Assembly (NCBI GenBank): GCA_965219345.1
Contig: OZ244732.1
Location: forward strand, 1,568,001-1,632,000
Length of the DNA stretch: 64,000 nucleotides
Origin: Nitrosopumilus sp.
GTDB lineage: Archaea > Thermoproteota > Nitrososphaeria > Nitrososphaerales > Nitrosopumilaceae
Reading direction: 5' to 3'
Positions 7,301 to 43,642 of the stretch are shown one piece after another. Both the position numbers and the translations under genes were made by a program. The first letter of the stretch is position 1. The number at the start of each line of letters is the position of its first letter. The notes below the pieces were generated by a model. It was given only the letters and a program-made list of their open reading frames with translations. It was not told where the DNA came from and searched no databases.

Positions 7301-7528
7301 CTACGTCATCTTGTCCAGTTTGTCATTGTCTACATAGTCTGGATCTCCCGGCTTGTTGAAGGCGTTTAGGTATGATTGAACCATGACCATGAGGTGTTCT
7401 GTCATGGTTTCAAGTGTTTTTGCCTTGTACCTCTTTTCTAATGCCCTGACGAAATCTTTCGAGAATATCTCGCTTGACACTAGAAACTCACGGATCATCT
7501 TGTCGCGCGGCGTGTATGCGGCTGACAC
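7301..7528 (-). CDS. Hypothetical protein next to the right TIR
   Basis: 75 aa ORF with protein-like composition. Confidence 0.45.
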   Translation of the reverse strand: MSAAYTPRDKMIREFLVSSEIFSKDFVRALEKRYKAKTLETMTEHLMVMVQSYLNAFNKPGDPDYVDNDKLDKMT

Positions 7529-7579
7529 GGGATCAATCCTAATGGAGATCTCTATAAACCGATCCTTGGCCGACCGCCC

Positions 7580-7631
7580 CAGCTCCCGGCCTTTCCCAAG
7601 AAGGATCAGCTCCCGTTAACTTCCCAGTCCC
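7580..7631 (-). repeat. Right terminal inverted repeat
   Basis: CAGCTCCCGGCCTTTCCCAAGAAGGATCAGCTCCCGTTAACTTCCCAGTCCC. Confidence 0.95.
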
Positions 7632-7653
7632 CTTTTTGTTTTAAGGCTAAATA

Positions 7654-8010
7654 TTAAACTGGAAGGATAACCTTGCCTTCAAATTTTGGGATATTATCAA
7701 TCTCAAATGCTTTTTCCAAATTTTCTTTTTGTAGTTTCGTTACACCTTGAACTATTGTTTTTGAGGACCCAGTTTTGTCAACAAGTGCAAGAATAAAACC
7801 ACTATTATCGGTCAAAACAAAACCTGCTGATTCATCAACAAACGCATAGAGATTTTCTTCCCCTACAGGATTCCATACATTAGATTTGGTGTCAACCAAG
7901 GCAAGTGCTGGCATTGCTCGTCCATCGGTTAGTTTATTGAGATACTCTCTAGCTTCTGCAACTCTTTTTTGACCTAGTTTTAATGCCTGAAAATATTGCA
8001 TGTTTCTCAA
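7654..8010 (-). CDS. Hypothetical protein
   Basis: 118 aa ORF with host-like composition. Confidence 0.7.
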   Translation of the reverse strand: MRNMQYFQALKLGQKRVAEAREYLNKLTDGRAMPALALVDTKSNVWNPVGEENLYAFVDESAGFVLTDNSGFILALVDKTGSSKTIVQGVTKLQKENLEKAFEIDNIPKFEGKVILPV

Positions 8011-8078
8011 ATATTGGGATATTATAAAAACAATATCTCTTCAAAAGATTGTTATAGAATCTCAGATTTTCTAAATTT

Positions 8079-8378
8079 ATGCCTCTTACAAATAAGGTAA
8101 TAATCAAACTCAATGAAATAACTACCTTAGTTGAGGACAAGTCAAAATTATCTGAATCCGAAGTTGATGAAATAAAATCTATCTTCAAAACCATTGTAGA
8201 AAGTGGTGAGAGATACAACATTGACGAAATTGAATTCTGGTTTGAAAATGAAGGAAGTTGGGTAACTAAAGAACCTCGAATCAGAATTACAAATCTTTCA
8301 AATTACATTCAAGACAAATACCAACAAACAGCCCATCTAAGAATAATTTCTGATGATGATTGTAATTGTGATAACTAA
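8079..8378 (+). CDS. Hypothetical protein
   Basis: 99 aa ORF. Confidence 0.7.
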   Translation: MPLTNKVIIKLNEITTLVEDKSKLSESEVDEIKSIFKTIVESGERYNIDEIEFWFENEGSWVTKEPRIRITNLSNYIQDKYQQTAHLRIISDDDCNCDN

Positions 8379-36452: not shown

Positions 36453-36752
36453 ATGAGGTTTTTATCCAATTTTAGAAAAGACTTGCAAACTGAAAAAAGA
36501 AAAAAAGCTGCTCAGATTAACGGCAAGAATCTCAAAGGATTATTAAAAAAATTCAAAGAAGAAAGAGACAGGATAGAAAAAGAGACTGGAAACAGGCCTG
36601 AAATCGATAATACTACACAGATGTTTATGCAAAAAATCCTAAACGTATGGATTTCCGAAGGAAAAGAAATTGATGAAGAGAAGTTCTGGGCAGAAGTTGA
36701 TTATAATAGGCAGTTTACCCATCCAGTTGAATTTTATGAGATAAAACGCTAG
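36453..36752 (+). CDS. Hypothetical protein
   Basis: 99 aa ORF. Confidence 0.65.
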   Translation: MRFLSNFRKDLQTEKRKKAAQINGKNLKGLLKKFKEERDRIEKETGNRPEIDNTTQMFMQKILNVWISEGKEIDEEKFWAEVDYNRQFTHPVEFYEIKR

Positions 36753-36767
36753 CTTAATCCTAATTTA

Positions 36768-36986
36768 TTATGACAAATTTGCAACAAATTGATAAATTAC
36801 TACAGTACCTATTATTATCCCAATCACACTTCCAATAATCACCACATATTTTTTGAGCGCTTCACTTTTTTCAAATTTAATATTGGCTATCCGTTTTGCC
36901 TCTGAGTGATGTCTTTCGCAACGAAGTTTACCTTCATATTCCCGAATTCCCTTTTCATCACATTCATCACATTTTCGATCATCCAT
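36768..36986 (-). CDS. Small Zn-finger-like membrane-anchored protein
   Basis: CDEC...CERH plus a C-terminal TM segment. Confidence 0.55.
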   Translation of the reverse strand: MDDRKCDECDEKGIREYEGKLRCERHHSEAKRIANIKFEKSEALKKYVVIIGSVIGIIIGTVVIYQFVANLS

Positions 36987-37214
36987 AATGATATTTTGAA
37001 TTTCACCAATGTTTAAAATTTCTGATTAACTTACGATCAACTCTAAATAATGTCCAAAAATAGACTAATTAGATTAGTTTGGAATAATTTTACTCAAAAA
37101 AATAGACTGGAAGGAAAGTTTTGATGACTGATTTACATATAATAACAAAATAGGCATTAATTATAACAAAAATTGGACGAAAATTTACTTAGTATCAAAT
37201 TAGAAGAAGTAATG

Positions 37215-37882
37215 AACAACTCATCTCAAAACCCTACAATACATCAAAAATGATGCAATGTTGACAAATGCCAGATAGTTTTCTGCGATTCTTTCATATC
37301 GAATTCTTGTTCTGTGAAAGCCATTCTTCAGCCAGTCAAAGAACCGCTCCACTACAAACCTGGTCTTGTTGTAATTGCCTTGCAGATTATTTTTCAGTGC
37401 CAGTTTAGAATTATTCCTGTAGGGGATACAGCAACCAATTCCATGACATCTGAGATAATTTCTAATGTATGCGGCATCGTAACCCTTGTCAGCATAGCAT
37501 GTTACAACTTGCTGAATCATGGAATCATCACCTGCAAAATCTGAGATTGATTCTATCACGTCAATGAATTTTGTGGAATCATGCTCGTTTGCGGAACTGA
37601 TTACAATGGATATCGGCAAGCCGTTTTGTTCTACCGCAACATGCAGTTTTGTGCCTAGAATCTTCTTAAATCCGTCATATCCTAGTTTGTTGCCACTTCT
37701 TCTTTACCGTGAATGGATGAAGAGTCAACTGATATCTTTTGCAGATTGATCTTATCTTGCCTGTGTGCTGATTGAATCGCACATCTGAAAACCTTCTTCC
37801 AAATCCCTTTTTGTTGCCAGGAGTTTAATCTTCTGCTTGCGGTAGAATCATCGCCGTATTGTCTTGGCATCTCACCCCATCA
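37215..37882 (-). mobile_element. IS5 family remnant, 5'-truncated, split over two frames
   Basis: WGEMPRQYG, SVDSSSI, GYDGFKKILGTKLHVAV, ADKGYD, RFVVERFF, RYER. Confidence 0.85.
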
Positions 37883-38015
37883 GCATCCTTTCTGCAAACT
37901 CACGGGCGCCGTCTTCGGTGTTGGGGTACTGCCCCCTCTCGAGAACTCTTCCCCTGCCGTCCACTATGCAGTAGTCGCACTTTCTCTTTGCAATGTCTAT
38001 TCCTATGCTGTTCAT
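37872..38015 (-). pseudogene. IS110 family recombinase N-terminal fragment (47 aa)
   Basis: MNSIGIDIAKRKCDYCIVDGRGRVLERGQYPNT carries the first DEDD motif (GID.AK); RBS AGGAGGTGA upstream. Confidence 0.8.
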
Positions 38016-38192
38016 CCTATCCTATCACCTCCTTTCGGATGTGTTGACGGATCGGAAGCTGCAAGCACCCATCATGGCGCGAAGCCCAATTACACAGCAG
38101 CTCGGATTGCCCCATTCATAACTGAGGGCGCGAAGCCCAAACGAAATAAGGGGTCGATCCATCACAGCTACTGCGCAGGGGTGGTTATCATG

Positions 38193-38284
38193 GTATGAGG
38201 TCACGTCCCCCTTGCAGATAGGCACGGAAACGCTTTGAACCGTTCGAATTTACGCCTATCATGAAGGTACAGGTGACCTCATAC
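38193..38284. mobile_element. 92 bp MITE
   Basis: 12 bp TIR GTATGAGGTCAC/GTGACCTCATAC; 8 bp TSD TTATCATG at 38185-38192 and 38285-38292; empty site present in copy B. Confidence 0.92.
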
Positions 38285-38442
38285 TTATCATGTGTTCATA
38301 ACTGAATAAAGAGATAATCCAATATACTTGCAGGCGTCGCGCATTACAATGCATTCTGGCATGTCAGATTCAGGCGTTAGAAGATCCTCATCTACCTAGC
38401 TTACCAAAGTTTATACCGTCATTGATGCCAAGTTAGCTACTC

Positions 38443-39357
38443 TTGGGTTATGATGATCTTTATCCACTTGATTTATCAAAATGCTTCAAGGACTGGCTTT
38501 ATCGGCATTCCCGCCTACGCGCGTTTTACGTGGATATAGTGTACAGGCAGACCGCGTTTCGGAGGATCACCGCGCCACTGAGGGCGATGCCGGATTTTGT
38601 CATCATAGGCGCGCAAAAGTCTGGGACGACTTCGCTGTATGATTATATCACAAGTCACCCCTCAGTGGCGCGCGCGCGCTATAAGGAGGTGCATTATTTT
38701 TCCCTGCGGCACAAGTATGGCAAGCTGTGGTACCGTTCCAACTTCCAGACCAACTTCTCGCGGCGCCGCTTTTACGAGAAGACAGGGCAAAAGCTCCTCA
38801 GCGGGGAGGCCAGCCCGTACTATCTCTTCCACCCTGCAGTCCCGGACAGGATGAAGGCTGTCCTGCCAGATGTGAAGCTCATCGTGATCTTGCGCAACCC
38901 CGTTGACCGCGCATACTCCCACTACCACCACACATCAAGGAAGAACCAAGAACCGTTGTCGTTTGAGGAGGCCATCAGGGCAGAGGAGGCGCGGTGCACG
39001 GGGGAGAGGGAGCGACTGCTCAGGGATCCGGACTTTGTCCCCCTACACTACCGCAACCACTCGTACCTTTCCAGAGGCGTCTACGCCGACCAGCTGGAAA
39101 ACTGGTTCAAGTACTATGGCAGGGAACAGTTCTTGATCCTGGCCACTGAAGACCTCCGCAAGGATCCGCAGCGTACACTGGACCGCGTCTTTGACTTTCT
39201 GGGGGCAACTCCATTACGTGTCGGCGGCTTGAGGGATCGCAATGTTGGAGACTATAAGGAGATGGGCAAGGAGACGCGCAAATTCCTGATCGAGTACTTT
39301 AGGCCATACAACCAGAGGCTGTACAAGATGCTGCATCGCAGCTTTGATTGGAACTAG
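38443..39357 (+). CDS. PAPS-dependent sulfotransferase (heparan sulfate 3-O-ST-like)
   Basis: PDFVIIGAQKSGTTSL (5'-PSB), EASPYY, LRNPVDRAYS (3'-PB). Confidence 0.92.
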   Translation: MGYDDLYPLDLSKCFKDWLYRHSRLRAFYVDIVYRQTAFRRITAPLRAMPDFVIIGAQKSGTTSLYDYITSHPSVARARYKEVHYFSLRHKYGKLWYRSNFQTNFSRRRFYEKTGQKLLSGEASPYYLFHPAVPDRMKAVLPDVKLIVILRNPVDRAYSHYHHTSRKNQEPLSFEEAIRAEEARCTGERERLLRDPDFVPLHYRNHSYLSRGVYADQLENWFKYYGREQFLILATEDLRKDPQRTLDRVFDFLGATPLRVGGLRDRNVGDYKEMGKETRKFLIEYFRPYNQRLYKMLHRSFDWN

Positions 39358-39638
39358 CGTGGTGGCGTAGTTTCCGTGGCTCATAATTAATCACAAAAAC
39401 GCCAACAATTACCAACCAAACGATCTAGATCACAGCAGGACTCACATACACACACACACTGCATGAGAATCGAATATTCAGCGATACCGGCAGGGGACAA
39501 GTTCCTGCCGGGCACGAGCAGGGCGTACCTACGCAGGTCATCTTCCGTTCTGGCGGTGCCAGAACCGGCAGACTCATCCATCTCATCTTCTGGATTCTTG
39601 GATCCTTGCACATATGATTACTAATCTCTTATACACGC

Positions 39639-40502
39639 TCAAGATATTATCGCTGATTCCACATAGATGGCAGTGTCCGTGTTCCTTAGTAGCGAGCGTT
39701 TCATGCCTAGTCGGCCAAGAACTTTCTCTTTCTGATACCTTTTGTTCCACGAGGCCACTTGGTCGTCCTTGCATTCAACTCCGGAGGACAGATATCCTTT
39801 GATGTAGTGCAAATTCCATCTTCTGATTGTTACAAGTATTACGAACCATAGTGAGAACCCCCTTTGTTTGAACAATTTGCCACGCCGTTCTATCGTCTGC
39901 CTGTTGTAGTTGGTGCCAATATTTCGTTTGAACTGCATAGGTATGTCGGTGTATACTGCAGATCGAAACCCTGTGAGGGAGGCATGTGTGATAAGGGATG
40001 CGCCGTTCAGGTGGGAGGTTCTAGAGGGGTGTTGGAATTTTTTCAACCATTTGACGTCAACTATCGCGCCGGATTCGCCCACAAGTATGAGCTTGTCTTG
40101 TAGGTCTTGGCCGCACGCTATGACCACCCCGTCACGGCGCATCCTTTTTGTGATTTCGCCAATATACGAATTGGAAAGGACTGTGTCTCCATCTACGCAT
40201 ATTACGTAGTCAGTCCCCCCCCCCACGATTGCCTCGTTGAAGAGACTTTGCCGTAGTTCGAAAAAACGTCCAGACAGATAATCGTGTGGATAAGGGTCGT
40301 GGTGGGTGATTTCGATTCCACTTATAGAATCAAGTATTTCCTTTGTGCCGTCGGTGGATCCGTCATTGGCTACCAATATACGTGAGGCGGGAGGATCCTG
40401 CGCTTTTATGGCATCAATTACGCTCCGTATGTGGTTCTCTTCGTTTCGGATCACAAGAAATGCATTCCACGTGTAACTACCTGACTGCATTTTACTACAC
40501 AT
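39639..40502 (-). CDS. Glycosyltransferase family 2
   Basis: RNEE, NDGSTDGT, VDGD; G10 tract in the coding strand. Confidence 0.85.
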   Translation of the reverse strand: MCSKMQSGSYTWNAFLVIRNEENHIRSVIDAIKAQDPPASRILVANDGSTDGTKEILDSISGIEITHHDPYPHDYLSGRFFELRQSLFNEAIVGGGTDYVICVDGDTVLSNSYIGEITKRMRRDGVVIACGQDLQDKLILVGESGAIVDVKWLKKFQHPSRTSHLNGASLITHASLTGFRSAVYTDIPMQFKRNIGTNYNRQTIERRGKLFKQRGFSLWFVILVTIRRWNLHYIKGYLSSGVECKDDQVASWNKRYQKEKVLGRLGMKRSLLRNTDTAIYVESAIIS

Positions 40503-40841
40503 AAGATGCTGTCAACAGTTAAATATTTTATGCAAAGACTGAGGTTGGTGCGTAATTCTAGTCTATCCCGTTCACACACATCTCCCGCCATGTCTTCACC
40601 GACGGATTTTCCGGGTGTGTCAGGCCTTCAGCTGCCTTGTACACATCGTTTCCCAGTAGATGGACCCGTCTAGGCGCATGCCGCGCGTGCTAGGTCGCCA
40701 TAGGTCGGTATCGGTATCCGGAGCTCAATCCAGTCGAGATCCAGTGGCGCGGGGAGTTTACATCCTTTCACTGTATACCAACCGTTAACGCGCAAGAATC
40801 GATCATCATGATCAGTGATAAGCATAGGACTTATCGGATGT

Positions 40842-41765
40842 TTATCTATCCCAATCAAAACTGCATCGTAGCAGTTTGGATAGTCTCTTGTTGTGAGGTT
40901 TAAAGTACTCGATTAGGAATTTGCGCGTCTCTTCGCTCATCTTCTCATAGTTTCCAATGTTAAGGGATTTCGTTTTTTCTACTTGAAAAGAAGGCACTCC
41001 CAAGAAATCAAAGACTTTATCTAGCGTCTGCTGTCGATTTTCACGAAGATCTTCTGCAGTCAAAATCAAAAACTTTTCTCTGCCATAGTACTTGAACCAG
41101 TTTTCCAGCTGATCGACGTAAATGCCATTGGCAAGGCACAAATTAGTAGAATCTCTGTTGTGAATATAATCTGGATCTGTTATCATACGTTTCCTTTCTC
41201 TGACGCGCTGTTCTTCTTCCAACTTGATGACTTTCTCAAATGAGATTGATTCTCTATTCAATCTCAATAACATATGATAGTGAGAGTACGCCCGATCAAC
41301 TGGATTGCGCAAAATCACGATCAGTTTTACGTCAGGCAAGAGCGCTTTCATCCTGCTTGGGGCGGCCTGCCAAAAAAGGTAGTTTGGACTAGCTTCTCCA
41401 CTGAGGAGTTTTTTCTTTGTTTTTTTGTAGAAATAGTACCTTTGTATCTTGGTTGGAAAATTAGAACGGTACCACAGTTTGCCAAATCTATATCCAGTAG
41501 AAAAATATTTTAGCTCTTTTGCAGGTGTGGGAACAATATCTGGATGTTTAACAATAAAATCATACAACGATGTGGTTCCGGATTTCTGAGCGCCGATAAT
41601 AACAAAATCAGGCAATTCCCTTAAGGGCGAGGTAATTATTTGAAACCTACCCGAGTTGCGCGCTTTCGGGTCCGTACCTATCCTTGGGTTATAGAATACG
41701 TGCAAAAGAGGGTGCCGATGCAACCACTTACTTGCATTCTCCCTGAGATATCCCAATATTGACAC
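40842..41765 (-). CDS. PAPS-dependent sulfotransferase, paralog of 38443-39357
   Basis: PDFVIIGAQKSGTTSL, EASPNY, LRNPVDRAYS. Confidence 0.92.
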   Translation of the reverse strand: MSILGYLRENASKWLHRHPLLHVFYNPRIGTDPKARNSGRFQIITSPLRELPDFVIIGAQKSGTTSLYDFIVKHPDIVPTPAKELKYFSTGYRFGKLWYRSNFPTKIQRYYFYKKTKKKLLSGEASPNYLFWQAAPSRMKALLPDVKLIVILRNPVDRAYSHYHMLLRLNRESISFEKVIKLEEEQRVRERKRMITDPDYIHNRDSTNLCLANGIYVDQLENWFKYYGREKFLILTAEDLRENRQQTLDKVFDFLGVPSFQVEKTKSLNIGNYEKMSEETRKFLIEYFKPHNKRLSKLLRCSFDWDR

Positions 41766-41800
41766 TAATCAATCGATGTTATTTGTATGTCGCGCGTACG

Positions 41801-42010
41801 TCAGTTATGAACACATGATAACCACCCCCTGCGCAGTAGTTGTGATGGATCGACCCCTTATTTCGTCTGGGCTTCGCGCCCTCAGTTATGAATGGGGCAA
41901 TCCGAGCTGCTGTGTAATTGAGCTTCGCGCCATGATGGGTGCTTGCAGCTTCCGATCCGTCAACACATCCAAAAGGAGGTGATAGGATAGGATGAACAGC
42001 ATAGGAATAG
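41801..42010 (+). mobile_element. IS110 left end, copy B, cut after MNSIGI by IS6
   Basis: About 210 bp inverted copy of the 37997-38305 region; ATG at 41992. Confidence 0.85.
41838..41970 (+). ncRNA. Putative IS110 bridge-RNA-like non-coding RNA
   Basis: Outer stem GATGGATCG/CGATCCGTC encloses two stem/internal-loop/hairpin modules; lies upstream of the IS110 ORF; folded by eye. Confidence 0.65.
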
Positions 42011-42512
42011 GGTTCTGTTGGGTTATGGGGATATAGAATGAAATATGAATTTTCTCCTAATTAAAAAATCATACCTACACAGAATCCTTGCTTAAACTTG
42101 CATTCTGAATTATTGTCTTCCATTTGTTTAATCCATCAACCTCAATCATAGAGGCCTGTGCTGGAGTTTGACCCTTCAATGCTCCGTGCTTTTTTGTAAA
42201 ATTATAGTAGACTCTCATGCTATCCGAAATACCAGTATCCATCTTTTTGAGACCTCTGAATACCTTTTCCCTGTCCCTGATTTCACCGTTTAATCTTTCC
42301 ATCTTGTTGTTGTTCATGTCACCTTGCAGATGAATATGCCTAATGTGGTTGGTATCACTGCCAAAGATTTTCCTGCTTGACTTCATGTAAGCTTGCAAAC
42401 CATCTGTTATGAAATTGCGTGGATTCTTGCCAGCTTGTAATTTTGTTAATCTCAATAGGCTGTCTGCATTATGATGAAATTTGTTATCTGCAATCTCTTT
42501 TTTATCTCCCAA
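42011..42512 (-). mobile_element. IS6 family remnant (3' part and TIR)
   Basis: GGTTCTGTTG end; ITDGLQAY, NNKMERLN, YYNF, TPAQ. Confidence 0.8.
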
Positions 42513-42529
42513 TTCAACTATTTTTTTTC

Positions 42530-43103
42530 GCCTACTAATTTTTGAAGATGAGATGTGATCACATCATCAGTAAATCCAAGAATGTCTGTAATTTTACTTA
42601 AACTAATCTGATTTCCAGCTTTCAAAATAAAATTAATACGGTCTATTACTTTTTCTGCTGCTTTTGATTCAGCTTCTTTCAGCATCTTAACTTGTTCTGA
42701 TTCTTTTGAAAAGAAAGTTGCTCTTTTTCAATTGTATCAATAATACTTTTTAGATCATCAAATCGTATTGACTTGTCAAGATAGCGGCATACTCCGTACG
42801 AATAAGTTCTTTTATTCCTGCATCTTCCTTCTCGGTAGCAGTTTCCAAAATTACTCGCACATCTGGTTGAATTTCAATCATCTGTGTCAAAACTGAACGT
42901 GCATCCATGTCGGGTAATATAAAATCAAGTAATACAAATGGTTGTTTATTGTTAGTAATTAGTTCATTGAATGTATGAACCGCACCAGAACCTGTCTCAC
43001 AAATATGATTATCAGTATATCCTAATTTTTCCAAATAATTTTTTAAAAGAATACCAACAGCAGGGTTATCCTCTACAATCAGAACACTCTCTTTTGAGCT
43101 CAT
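42530..43103 (-). pseudogene. Response regulator receiver protein, frameshifted near 42795
   Basis: LIVEDN, LLDFILPD; expected tail YLDKSIRFDDLK is in another frame. Confidence 0.7.
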
Positions 43104-43642
43104 TTTTGACTTTCCAGCATAATGTTGAGTGAAAATTATTTATGAAATAAAGAGTGTTTTGTTTAGCTTATGACATGAATTTTTACACCATTTTGATAGA
43201 ATAGTACATCATCCCAAGTCTGGAAATTTTTTGATGAATATACCTGAATTTCAGGATAATTATTGAAAGATTCTTTGTATAATATATTAAGAAATTATGA
43301 CAATAAAGGTATAACATATGATAAGATTCTAATTAATTATTAATTTATCATTTAAAAAAACCAGATGCAGAAAAAATAATTACGTAATTGAAAAGAATAC
43401 TCTAAAAAACTTGTAGAAGTAAAAATTTAAACTCGACAAGCATCAGAAAAAGGTAAATAATTTTTAAATCAAGCTTTTAGTTTCTAAAAATTCTAAATAA
43501 GAAATGTTAATCGTTAAAATAAACATAGGGACCAAATCCAATGTCACCAAAAATTTTACAAATACATGAATACGTTGAATAGAAAATTCTAGTAATCAAT
43601 ACAGCACAAAGGACTAAATGTGTCAAAAAAATTCAATATTTA

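Follow-up and report, generated by a model that had tools for sequence, protein, structure and literature searches.

What does it mean when two inverted pieces of one insertion sequence (IS) enclose a set of genes for surface glycans? The question is raised by a locus at 37872-42010 of a 64,000-nucleotide stretch of DNA (positions 1,568,001 to 1,632,000 of contig OZ244732.1, assembly GCA_965219345.1; hereafter, the window) from Nitrosopumilus sp., whose 1.91-Mb genome is 99.5% complete. At this locus two sulfotransferase genes (ST-A and ST-B) and the gene of a family 2 glycosyltransferase (GT2) lie between two near-identical segments in inverted orientation, each of which, read outward, enters the first codons of an IS110 recombinase gene. 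A first-pass annotation of the sequence had proposed an archaeal IS110-linked cargo unit, or invertible segment, carrying a glycan sulfation module. The host is an archaeon, as proposed: its genome encodes archaeal AmoA, which establishes it as an ammonia oxidizer. The notion of a unit run by IS110 fares less well. The locus is probably the product of two independent IS110 insertions, each guided by a bridge RNA, beside an imported and mosaic glycan module, and later eroded by IS5- and IS6-type elements.

The two inverted segments (arm A on the left, arm B on the right) are real. An ungapped repeat search places them at 37997-38181 and 41826-42010 (185 nt, 98%), and gapped BLAST extends them to 37997-38192 and 41814-42010 (197 columns, 97.5%). 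Arm A is interrupted by a miniature inverted-repeat transposable element (MITE), past which the likeness resumes for 13 nt (38293-38305 = 41813-41801); aligned without that insertion, the arms occupy 210 columns with 5 differences (1 indel, 4 substitutions) and are 97.6% alike. The ~210 bp originally annotated is accordingly right as to length and likeness and wrong as to continuity. Most of it is IS110, except that ~7 nt and a 2-nt core at the inner tips are target DNA. Since arms A and B are the sole two copies in the genome (by BLAST and by the covariance model described below), their likeness is not due to chance. Reading outward from arm A on the minus strand (38015 to 37875), one finds 47 codons starting MNSIGIDIAK and then a stop; this stub (37872-38015) matches the PF01548 profile DEDD_Tnp_IS110 (E 1.6e-7; 31.7 bits, cut-off 29) at profile positions 1-40 only, its likeness to IS110 ending at about codon 44 (near 37884). 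Arm B retains on the plus strand an ATG and 5 further codons (41992-42009, within a recombinase start cut after 42010), which are followed by GGTTCTGTTGGG at 42011; these 6 codons are identical to those of arm A and too short for profile scoring. Neither arm has the C-terminal Transposase_20 domain (PF02371), and neither has a full reading frame, the genes ending at 47 and 6 codons. Both inner ends are left ends of IS110, as had been noticed at the outset, and both right ends have been replaced, by an IS5 remnant on the left side and an IS6 remnant on the right.

The left ends hold more than the approach to a recombinase gene. When the island is compared by BLAST with 400 genomes of the family (individual genomes are denoted below by G numbers), related left ends at 69-84% identity are found in ~20 of them, and copy pairs within G074 and G140 set the element's length (1424-1463 bp) and ends. 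Two alignments, one of 31 related copies with both window arms and the other of window arm B with 24 non-redundant relatives, consist of conserved blocks with variable strands between them. RNAalifold folds the latter 25 sequences into a closing stem that encloses two stem-loops, each with an internal loop, for a total of 26 pairs. In this consensus 96% of the cells are paired, as against 37-50% when the partners are slid by 1-3 columns; 14 of the 26 pairs show compensatory changes, and the observed score is reached by 0 of 500 shuffles. On this comparative evidence the left ends in the window are complete bridge-RNA genes of this IS110 clade, located in the non-coding DNA at 38016-38192 in arm A (minus strand; RNA core 38043-38166) and at 41810-41991 in arm B (plus strand; RNA core 41841-41964). 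They have decayed only slightly: arm B is without 2 of the 3 pairs of the loop 2 apical stem, and the arms differ from each other at one core-binding position of loop 1. A covariance model, R1, built on the 124-nt core with arm A kept outside the training alignment, yields exactly two matches in the host's own genome, arm A at 132.2 bits (E 9.2e-38) and arm B at 128 bits, and another 170 spread over 24 further genomes of the family (1-24 per genome, the highest numbers being those of G140 with 24, G076 with 19 and G407 with 16). In part of the family, then, elements of this clade are abundant. A scan of 36500-43500 against Rfam with E up to 1 gives no match, there being no curated family for this RNA. 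The available text of a preprint (bioRxiv 2024.06.21.599552) reports 662 archaeal IS110 recombinases; among the papers listed by one literature search, no description was found of the bridge RNAs of IS110 elements from ammonia oxidizers.

The bridge RNA of IS621 is described, in the portion of PMC11208160 drawn upon here, as binding the target with one loop and the donor with the other, the core taking part in each pairing. Related pairings can be traced in the present clade. Of the 7 nt to the left of an element, 4.52 on average agree with the 3′ strand of loop 1, compared with 1.71 of 7 for mispaired elements, and the sum of these left-guide matches is reached by 0 of 20,000 permutations. 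The flank of window arm B matches its guide at 7 of 7 positions, and the same seven letters, TCAGTTA, stand at arm A. On the other side of the element, G140 has a right flank that can pair with the 5′ strand of loop 1, and so has G074 if G:U pairs are allowed. As for loop 2, its 3′ strand repeats the right end in G074 and G140; changes in its 5′ strand go together with changes in the first bases of the left end in G407a, G076, G131 and G411a, not in G393 and G422b. The element boundaries in G074 and G140 point to TG as the presumed core. Arm A accordingly ends, on the minus strand, in an outermost tip at 38293-38296, the presumed core TG at 38297-38298 and the half-site TCAGTTA at 38299-38305; at the boundary of arm B, on the plus strand, half-site and presumed core together occupy 41801-41809. 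Past the guide-matched bases the two flanks are unrelated (CTTTAT at arm A, CGTACG at arm B). Because the likeness of the arms stops where the guide-matched flank ends, the arrangement fits two separate insertions and not a duplicated unit.

No enzyme that would act on these RNAs is recognized in the genome. PF01548 has five matches there, of which three are fragments of broken copies, one is arm A, and one is an intact gene of 358 aa. This last shares 28-30% identity with the recombinases of the clade and 34% with the stub, and its upstream region is unlike this bridge RNA. Judging from these comparisons, the genome is without a cognate recombinase for the arms; a search for intact IS110 copies in the genome turns up only that gene, ~30% identical to the clade. 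The nearest full-length recombinase, P0121 (360 aa), is 88% identical over 40 residues of the arm A stub, and full-length relatives in G074 and G393 bear both PF01548 and PF02371.

The surroundings of the locus tell of a variable patch. Five near-complete genomes of the same genus have the flanking genes, and the cassette is not at this locus in any of them; neither is a version of it without IS110 ends, the finding that would have spoken against an IS110-linked cassette. In G017 a 99-aa open reading frame (ORF) and a thioredoxin-like gene lie ~650 bp apart, and the locus is likewise compact in G002 and G006; G007, the closest of these genomes (86-87% nucleotide identity), has other cargo there, including a 17-kb stretch with an IS5 and a 354-aa ORF that looks integrase-like to the eye. 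With the locus compact or differently loaded in relatives, window positions 36750-43600 are a variable hot spot. The cassette with these ends was found at no other locus of the genome, in none of 60 relatives and in none of the 400 family genomes, and patterns for the exact guide variant have 0 matches in species-representative genomes and in metagenome contigs of the Joint Genome Institute.

So far the evidence is direct: it covers the anatomy of the locus, the RNA fold, the match between guide and flank, a genome without a cognate recombinase, and relatives without the block. In the scheme that follows, the order of events, the donor and the horizontal transfer are what we infer. Two copies of one IS110-group element would have inserted separately on either side of ST-A, GT2 and ST-B, each guided by the element's own bridge RNA to TCAGTTA-TG. 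With the two target sites on opposite strands, the copies would have come to lie inverted, their left ends facing the genes. The insertions would have taken place in a GC-richer (guanine-plus-cytosine-richer) relative, because the module and the IS110 pieces have a GC content of 0.40-0.55 compared with 0.33-0.37 for the host, and because the host has no intact copy; the block would then have arrived by horizontal transfer in a chromosomal hot spot. Resident IS5- and IS6-type elements would finally have removed the outward parts, leaving two orphan bridge-RNA genes, of which one carries a MITE close to the tip. What is left would no longer work as a mobile or RNA-guided unit.

The remains of this erosion adjoin the arms on their outer sides. 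The IS5-type remnant (37191-37883, minus strand) comprises a DUF4096 fragment at 37682-37870 and a DDE_Tnp_1 ORF at 37221-37619 (both by Pfam); judged against a fuller copy in the genome at C1:930.9-931.7 kb, it has lost ~45 N-terminal residues and its left end, where it is fused to the IS110-A stub. Three further IS5 copies of the same genome match it with 66-71% nucleotide identity. Copy A had been described as fused to an IS5 remnant, and fused it is; it did not, for all that, receive an IS5 insertion, both partners being truncated. On the other side, where copy B had been said to be cut by IS6, arm B does adjoin the terminal inverted repeat (at 42011) of a truncated IS6-type element (42011-42498, minus strand), of which the C-terminal 145 aa of the transposase are left (DDE_Tnp_IS240, PF13610); by comparison with a genome copy at C1:330.7-331.7 kb, the 5′ half of the transposase gene is gone. 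The genome has >20 related IS6-type copies by BLAST. All four insertion sequences at the locus are remnants. The MITE in arm A (38193-38284; 92 bp, with 12-bp terminal inverted repeats) lies ~13 nt inside the IS110-A end between 8-bp target duplications, TTATCATG, at 38185-38192 and 38285-38292, and arm B shows its empty site. That it belongs to a genuine MITE family is established by a 93-bp copy in G157 (L054:4077-4169) with near-identical terminal repeats and an 8-bp duplication of its own. One such terminal repeat is also held in the left flank of an IS110 copy of G074 (L041:3612-3623), a variant that seems to have landed inside a MITE.

The genes between the arms are, by their homologies, full length and intact: ST-A (38443-39357, plus strand; 304 aa; Sulfotransfer_1, E 1.3e-24), GT2 (39639-40502, minus strand; 287 aa; Glycos_transf_2, E 1.3e-13) and ST-B (40842-41765, minus strand; 307 aa; Sulfotransfer_1, E 1.3e-22). 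Their scores are above the cut-offs (87.5 and 80.8 bits for ST-A and ST-B with the profiles of PAPS-dependent sulfotransferases, Sulfotransfer_1/3, cut-off 22; 51.7 bits for GT2 with PF00535, cut-off 23.3), and homologues of 293-300 aa cover 95% of ST-A. With 58% protein and 66% DNA identity to each other, ST-A and ST-B are old paralogues. GC content is 0.33-0.37 in the host flanks, 0.51-0.54 in the arms, 0.55 in ST-A (0.546), 0.47 in GT2 (0.472) and 0.40 in ST-B (0.404), and at third codon positions (GC3) it is 0.71 in ST-A and 0.44 in ST-B, compared with 0.20 in the host's GAPDH gene. Relatives are distant throughout: the closest match to the ST-A protein among 5.8 billion proteins has 66-70% identity, and those of the cassette genes in G017, G002, G066, G423 and G420 have 64-76% DNA identity. 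The window GT2 is 62% identical in amino acids to a GT2 beside a sulfotransferase in G423, where a cluster (L038, C1:304000-323000) has four sulfotransferase and two GT2 genes, with a sulfotransferase-to-GT2 order on one strand matching that of ST-B and GT2. The sulfotransferase/GT2 clusters of G002, G017 and G066 are IS-rich. Because the sulfotransferases and GT2 are of full length, and because the host also has an adenosine 5′-phosphosulfate (APS) kinase, a sulfated glycan is a plausible product of these genes, which may be expressed; the sulfation module envisaged at the outset is plausible on the same grounds, the Pfam matches of the three genes and the APS kinase. The host has three other sulfotransferase-like loci. 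Adjoining the start codon of ST-A is an inverted copy of 36-37 nt (38410-38446, minus strand) of a ribosomal protein gene end, 94% identical to the host's own at C1:1631990-1632025 (~window 63990-64025) and with 88-100% matches in 27 of 36 same-genus genomes; from the gene order that follows, its source can be read as the last codons and stop of the uL14 gene. The presence of this copy makes the block a mosaic.

One might suppose that this IS110 aims at a conserved target upstream of sulfotransferase genes. Neither the comparison of flanks nor the searches for empty sites supports it. For the 13-mer of the empty target, the host's own genome has 4 sites with 1 mismatch and none exact, and near the sulfotransferase genes of relatives there is nothing better than 2 mismatches; we judge these near-matches to be at chance level. 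As it happens, the predicted window target also fits, with 1 mismatch, a site upstream of the genome's unrelated IS110 lineage (C1:1486548-1486560), and the two broken copies of that lineage (C1:483783-483795 and 72219-72231) fit it with 2 mismatches. In G066 two divergent sulfotransferase genes have between them a truncated member of this IS110 clade, with residues 5-197 (L037, C1:436000-452000, at ~7340-8100), whose left end faces the 5′ end of one of that pair, a pseudogene.

Is the DNA assembled correctly? Window words are found in 11 public sequencing runs of 6 studies, with four runs of one study holding 84-94% of them; no RNA run is among the 11. Contigs of 4 of these runs (X1, X4, X5 and X6, from three studies and possibly including the source sample) were compared over 36500-43500. 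X1 and X4 show three junctions: IS5 with IS110-A, left end A and MITE with the cassette, and ST-B with left end B. They cover 37445-38026, 38110-38430 and 41314-41897 (41310-41897 in X4) with 0-1 mismatches; X5 shows the three junctions on short contigs, and X6 only that between ST-B and left end B (41713-41981). The short contigs end inside the 197-bp repeat, and the orientation of the cassette is accordingly not phased. Some further features of these contigs deserve mention. Summed contig depth at 40540-40725 and 37202-37435 is 557-2500 in X1 and X4, in comparison with ~25-215 elsewhere; X6 has the same pattern at low depth, and changes at 40576-40695 are consistent across runs. A far more abundant organism in the samples has in common with the window this piece, 186 bp of the spacer between GT2 and ST-B, as well as part of the IS5. 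On the GT2 coding strand, the ten consecutive G at 40215-40224 have an in-frame 3-nt deletion in one low-depth X6 contig and an unchanged length in X1 and X4. Weak hints of rearranged variants come from two X1 contigs, one joining 37483 to 38394 (depth 12.7, short side 37 nt) and another joining 40009, in GT2, to the IS6 end at 42011 (depth 15.9, short side 30 nt). IS6/IS26 elements generate adjacent deletions, and the 40009/42011 joint would fit such an IS6-mediated deletion in a minor variant.

Against the background of related genomes, inward-facing ends are nothing special. Neighbouring pairs of bridge-RNA genes within 10 kb were counted in 24 genomes, for 150 of the 170 model R1 matches. 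Among the matches listed, the 12 neighbouring pairs comprise 3 with ends inward, 4 with ends outward and 5 in direct orientation. The proportion of 3 in 12 is the expectation for random orientation, so that ends-inward pairs are not enriched, and among these matches the counts rule out a recurrent special architecture of that kind. One such pair, in G393 (L059, C1:681000-687400), is made of two full-length, 100%-identical copies (1383-nt arms) with their ends inward around 1638 bp that contain an IS66-family transposase gene. The two have in common 7 nt on the left flank, together with 16 nt past the end of their likeness to the G422a element, and so may sit in the two terminal repeats of the IS66 element. 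Another pair, in G101 (1454-nt arms, 99%, 7560 nt apart), encloses genes for a TPR protein, an AAA_14/DUF4143 ATPase and prephenate dehydratase; the third is in G140, contents being known for the G393 and G101 pairs only. The two pairs examined show no link to sulfation genes or cargo.

The idea that IS110 runs the locus as a cargo unit or invertible segment is therefore not supported. IS110 elements move by way of a circle that joins one left and one right end. Both inner ends here being left ends, there is no left/right pair from which such a circle could be made; the right ends are gone, and the recombinases are reduced to 47 and 6 codons. The covariance model detects no third copy, the cassette and the guide variant are not found elsewhere, and ends-inward pairs, 3 of 12 among the matches listed, enclose unrelated genes in the two cases examined. 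What might still be entertained is that the cassette has been flipped or moved in trans by an IS110 recombinase acting on the paired junctions of left end and target, much as the invertase relatives of IS110 would do. The bridge-RNA genes are well preserved in score (128 and 132 bits, in a range of 41-140 for the matches listed elsewhere, whose intactness is unchecked), and three other ends-inward pairs exist in relatives among those matches. IS110 recombinases are able to invert and excise DNA at matching sites, and invertase homologues exist (according to the part of PMC11208160 used here). However, a genome that is 99.5% complete has no cognate recombinase; each junction joins half a target to half a donor, and following the pairing scheme given in the same part of that source, neither loop of the RNA would then be fully matched; and arm B is the one with the impaired apical stem in loop 2. 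Nor would flipping so symmetric an arrangement alter any obvious relation of promoter to gene, and of the ends-inward pairs, present at their random frequency, the two examined enclose an IS66 transposase gene in one case and, in the other, ordinary genes such as that of prephenate dehydratase. We consider this very unlikely. It is, if anything, a shade more doubtful that the orphan bridge RNAs are still made and that a compatible recombinase from co-resident relatives would allow the cassette to be flipped, excised or exchanged; if it were true, an archaeon would here vary its surface glycans by means of a natural, RNA-addressed cassette, with the G393, G101 and G140 pairs as further cases. 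Inversion by plain homologous recombination across the 197 bp is possible. As for a misjoining of contigs, the genome is repeat-rich (>20 IS6-type and several IS5-type copies) and the region is patchy in GC content, yet contigs of four public runs cross the junctions with 0-1 mismatches, and 5 private differences and one MITE mark the arms as two distinct loci; an assembly artefact is hardly credible.

The more serious competitor is a single insertion followed by an inverted segmental duplication or gene conversion that copied one left end and a few bases across the cassette. In a variant of this proposal, the same inverted duplication also gave rise to the ST-A/ST-B pair, and the arms were homogenized later. 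It has some appeal: ST-A and ST-B, too, are paralogues in inverted orientation (repeats I2-I6, 72-83% alike), both IS110 left ends face the 5′ end of a sulfotransferase gene, as does that of the IS110 relative adjoining the pseudogene in G066, and the flank of arm B matches its guide at 7 of 7 positions, where 5 of 7 is typical, with the same letters at arm A. On the other hand, arms that are 97.6% alike must be younger than a gene pair with 66% DNA and 58% protein identity and very different GC3 (0.71 versus 0.44). Moreover, the inner flanks are unalike past the guide-matched bases, their distances to the start codon differ (138 nt and 36 nt), and gene conversion would have had to halt exactly at the IS boundary on both sides. 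A duplication is in our estimate improbable. The reading as two guided insertions, which we prefer, has its own difficulties. The 9-mer TCAGTTATG occurs 24 times in the host genome, counting both strands, and we estimate the chance of a second site in that orientation within 4 kb at a few percent, so that local hopping, or another sequence context in the donor, must be assumed. The arm flanks match the guide at 7 of 7 positions and most elements at ~5; the two extra shared bases could be the trace of a short duplicated flank. With both right ends and right flanks gone, neither the completeness of either insertion nor the fit of the right half-site can be demonstrated, and in the G393/G422a subclade the right end does not fit the guide geometry. 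As to a donor, the nearest sulfotransferase is 66-70% identical and the nearest full-length recombinase, over 40 residues, 88%. Finally, ST-B is lower in GC, and there is the 36-nt host-gene fragment inside the block, which is a mosaic rather than one clean import.

What is to be learned from a locus of this kind? As a cassette it is of little significance, with imported glycan genes surrounded by mobile elements in decay. As a worked example it demonstrates how matching bridge-RNA guides to flanks separates independent insertions from duplications. The comparative evidence that an IS110 clade of ammonia-oxidizing archaea has two-loop bridge RNAs like those of bacterial IS621 is useful in its own right, and the closest full-length relatives are candidates for archaeal bridge recombinases. 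The sulfotransferase-GT2 module, for its part, is a hint that some of these archaea may bear sulfated glycans on their surface.

How, then, does the locus compare with systems already known? The element resembles the IS621 type (Durrant et al. 2024, PMC11208160, as described in the part of it consulted) in its DEDD-family stub, in having a two-loop RNA upstream of the gene, in the matching of one loop to the flanking target and, in some of the related elements, of the other to the element's own ends, with the core included, and in that no long terminal inverted repeats are seen. It differs in its archaeal host, in a presumed core of TG instead of CT, in the lack of an Rfam match and in belonging to a clade known from sequence alone; the window copies, without right ends and without nearly all of the recombinase gene, are remnants. 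A composite transposon is called to mind by passenger genes flanked by two copies of one IS; here, in contrast, the inner ends are both left ends, the outer ends are gone, there is no transposase, and the unit is not found elsewhere. The Piv protein of Moraxella is an IS110-like invertase that drives a site-specific invertible segment. With such invertase segments the locus has in common that IS110-derived inverted repeats flank a few kilobases of surface-structure genes, but it has no recombinase gene beside or inside it and no evident gene arrangement that depends on orientation. The closest likeness is to the IS-rich flexible glycan islands of ammonia-oxidizing archaea and other microbes: a strain-variable hot spot strewn with IS remnants, with no essential difference between them. 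It is with these flexible surface-glycan islands that we would file the locus as a whole.

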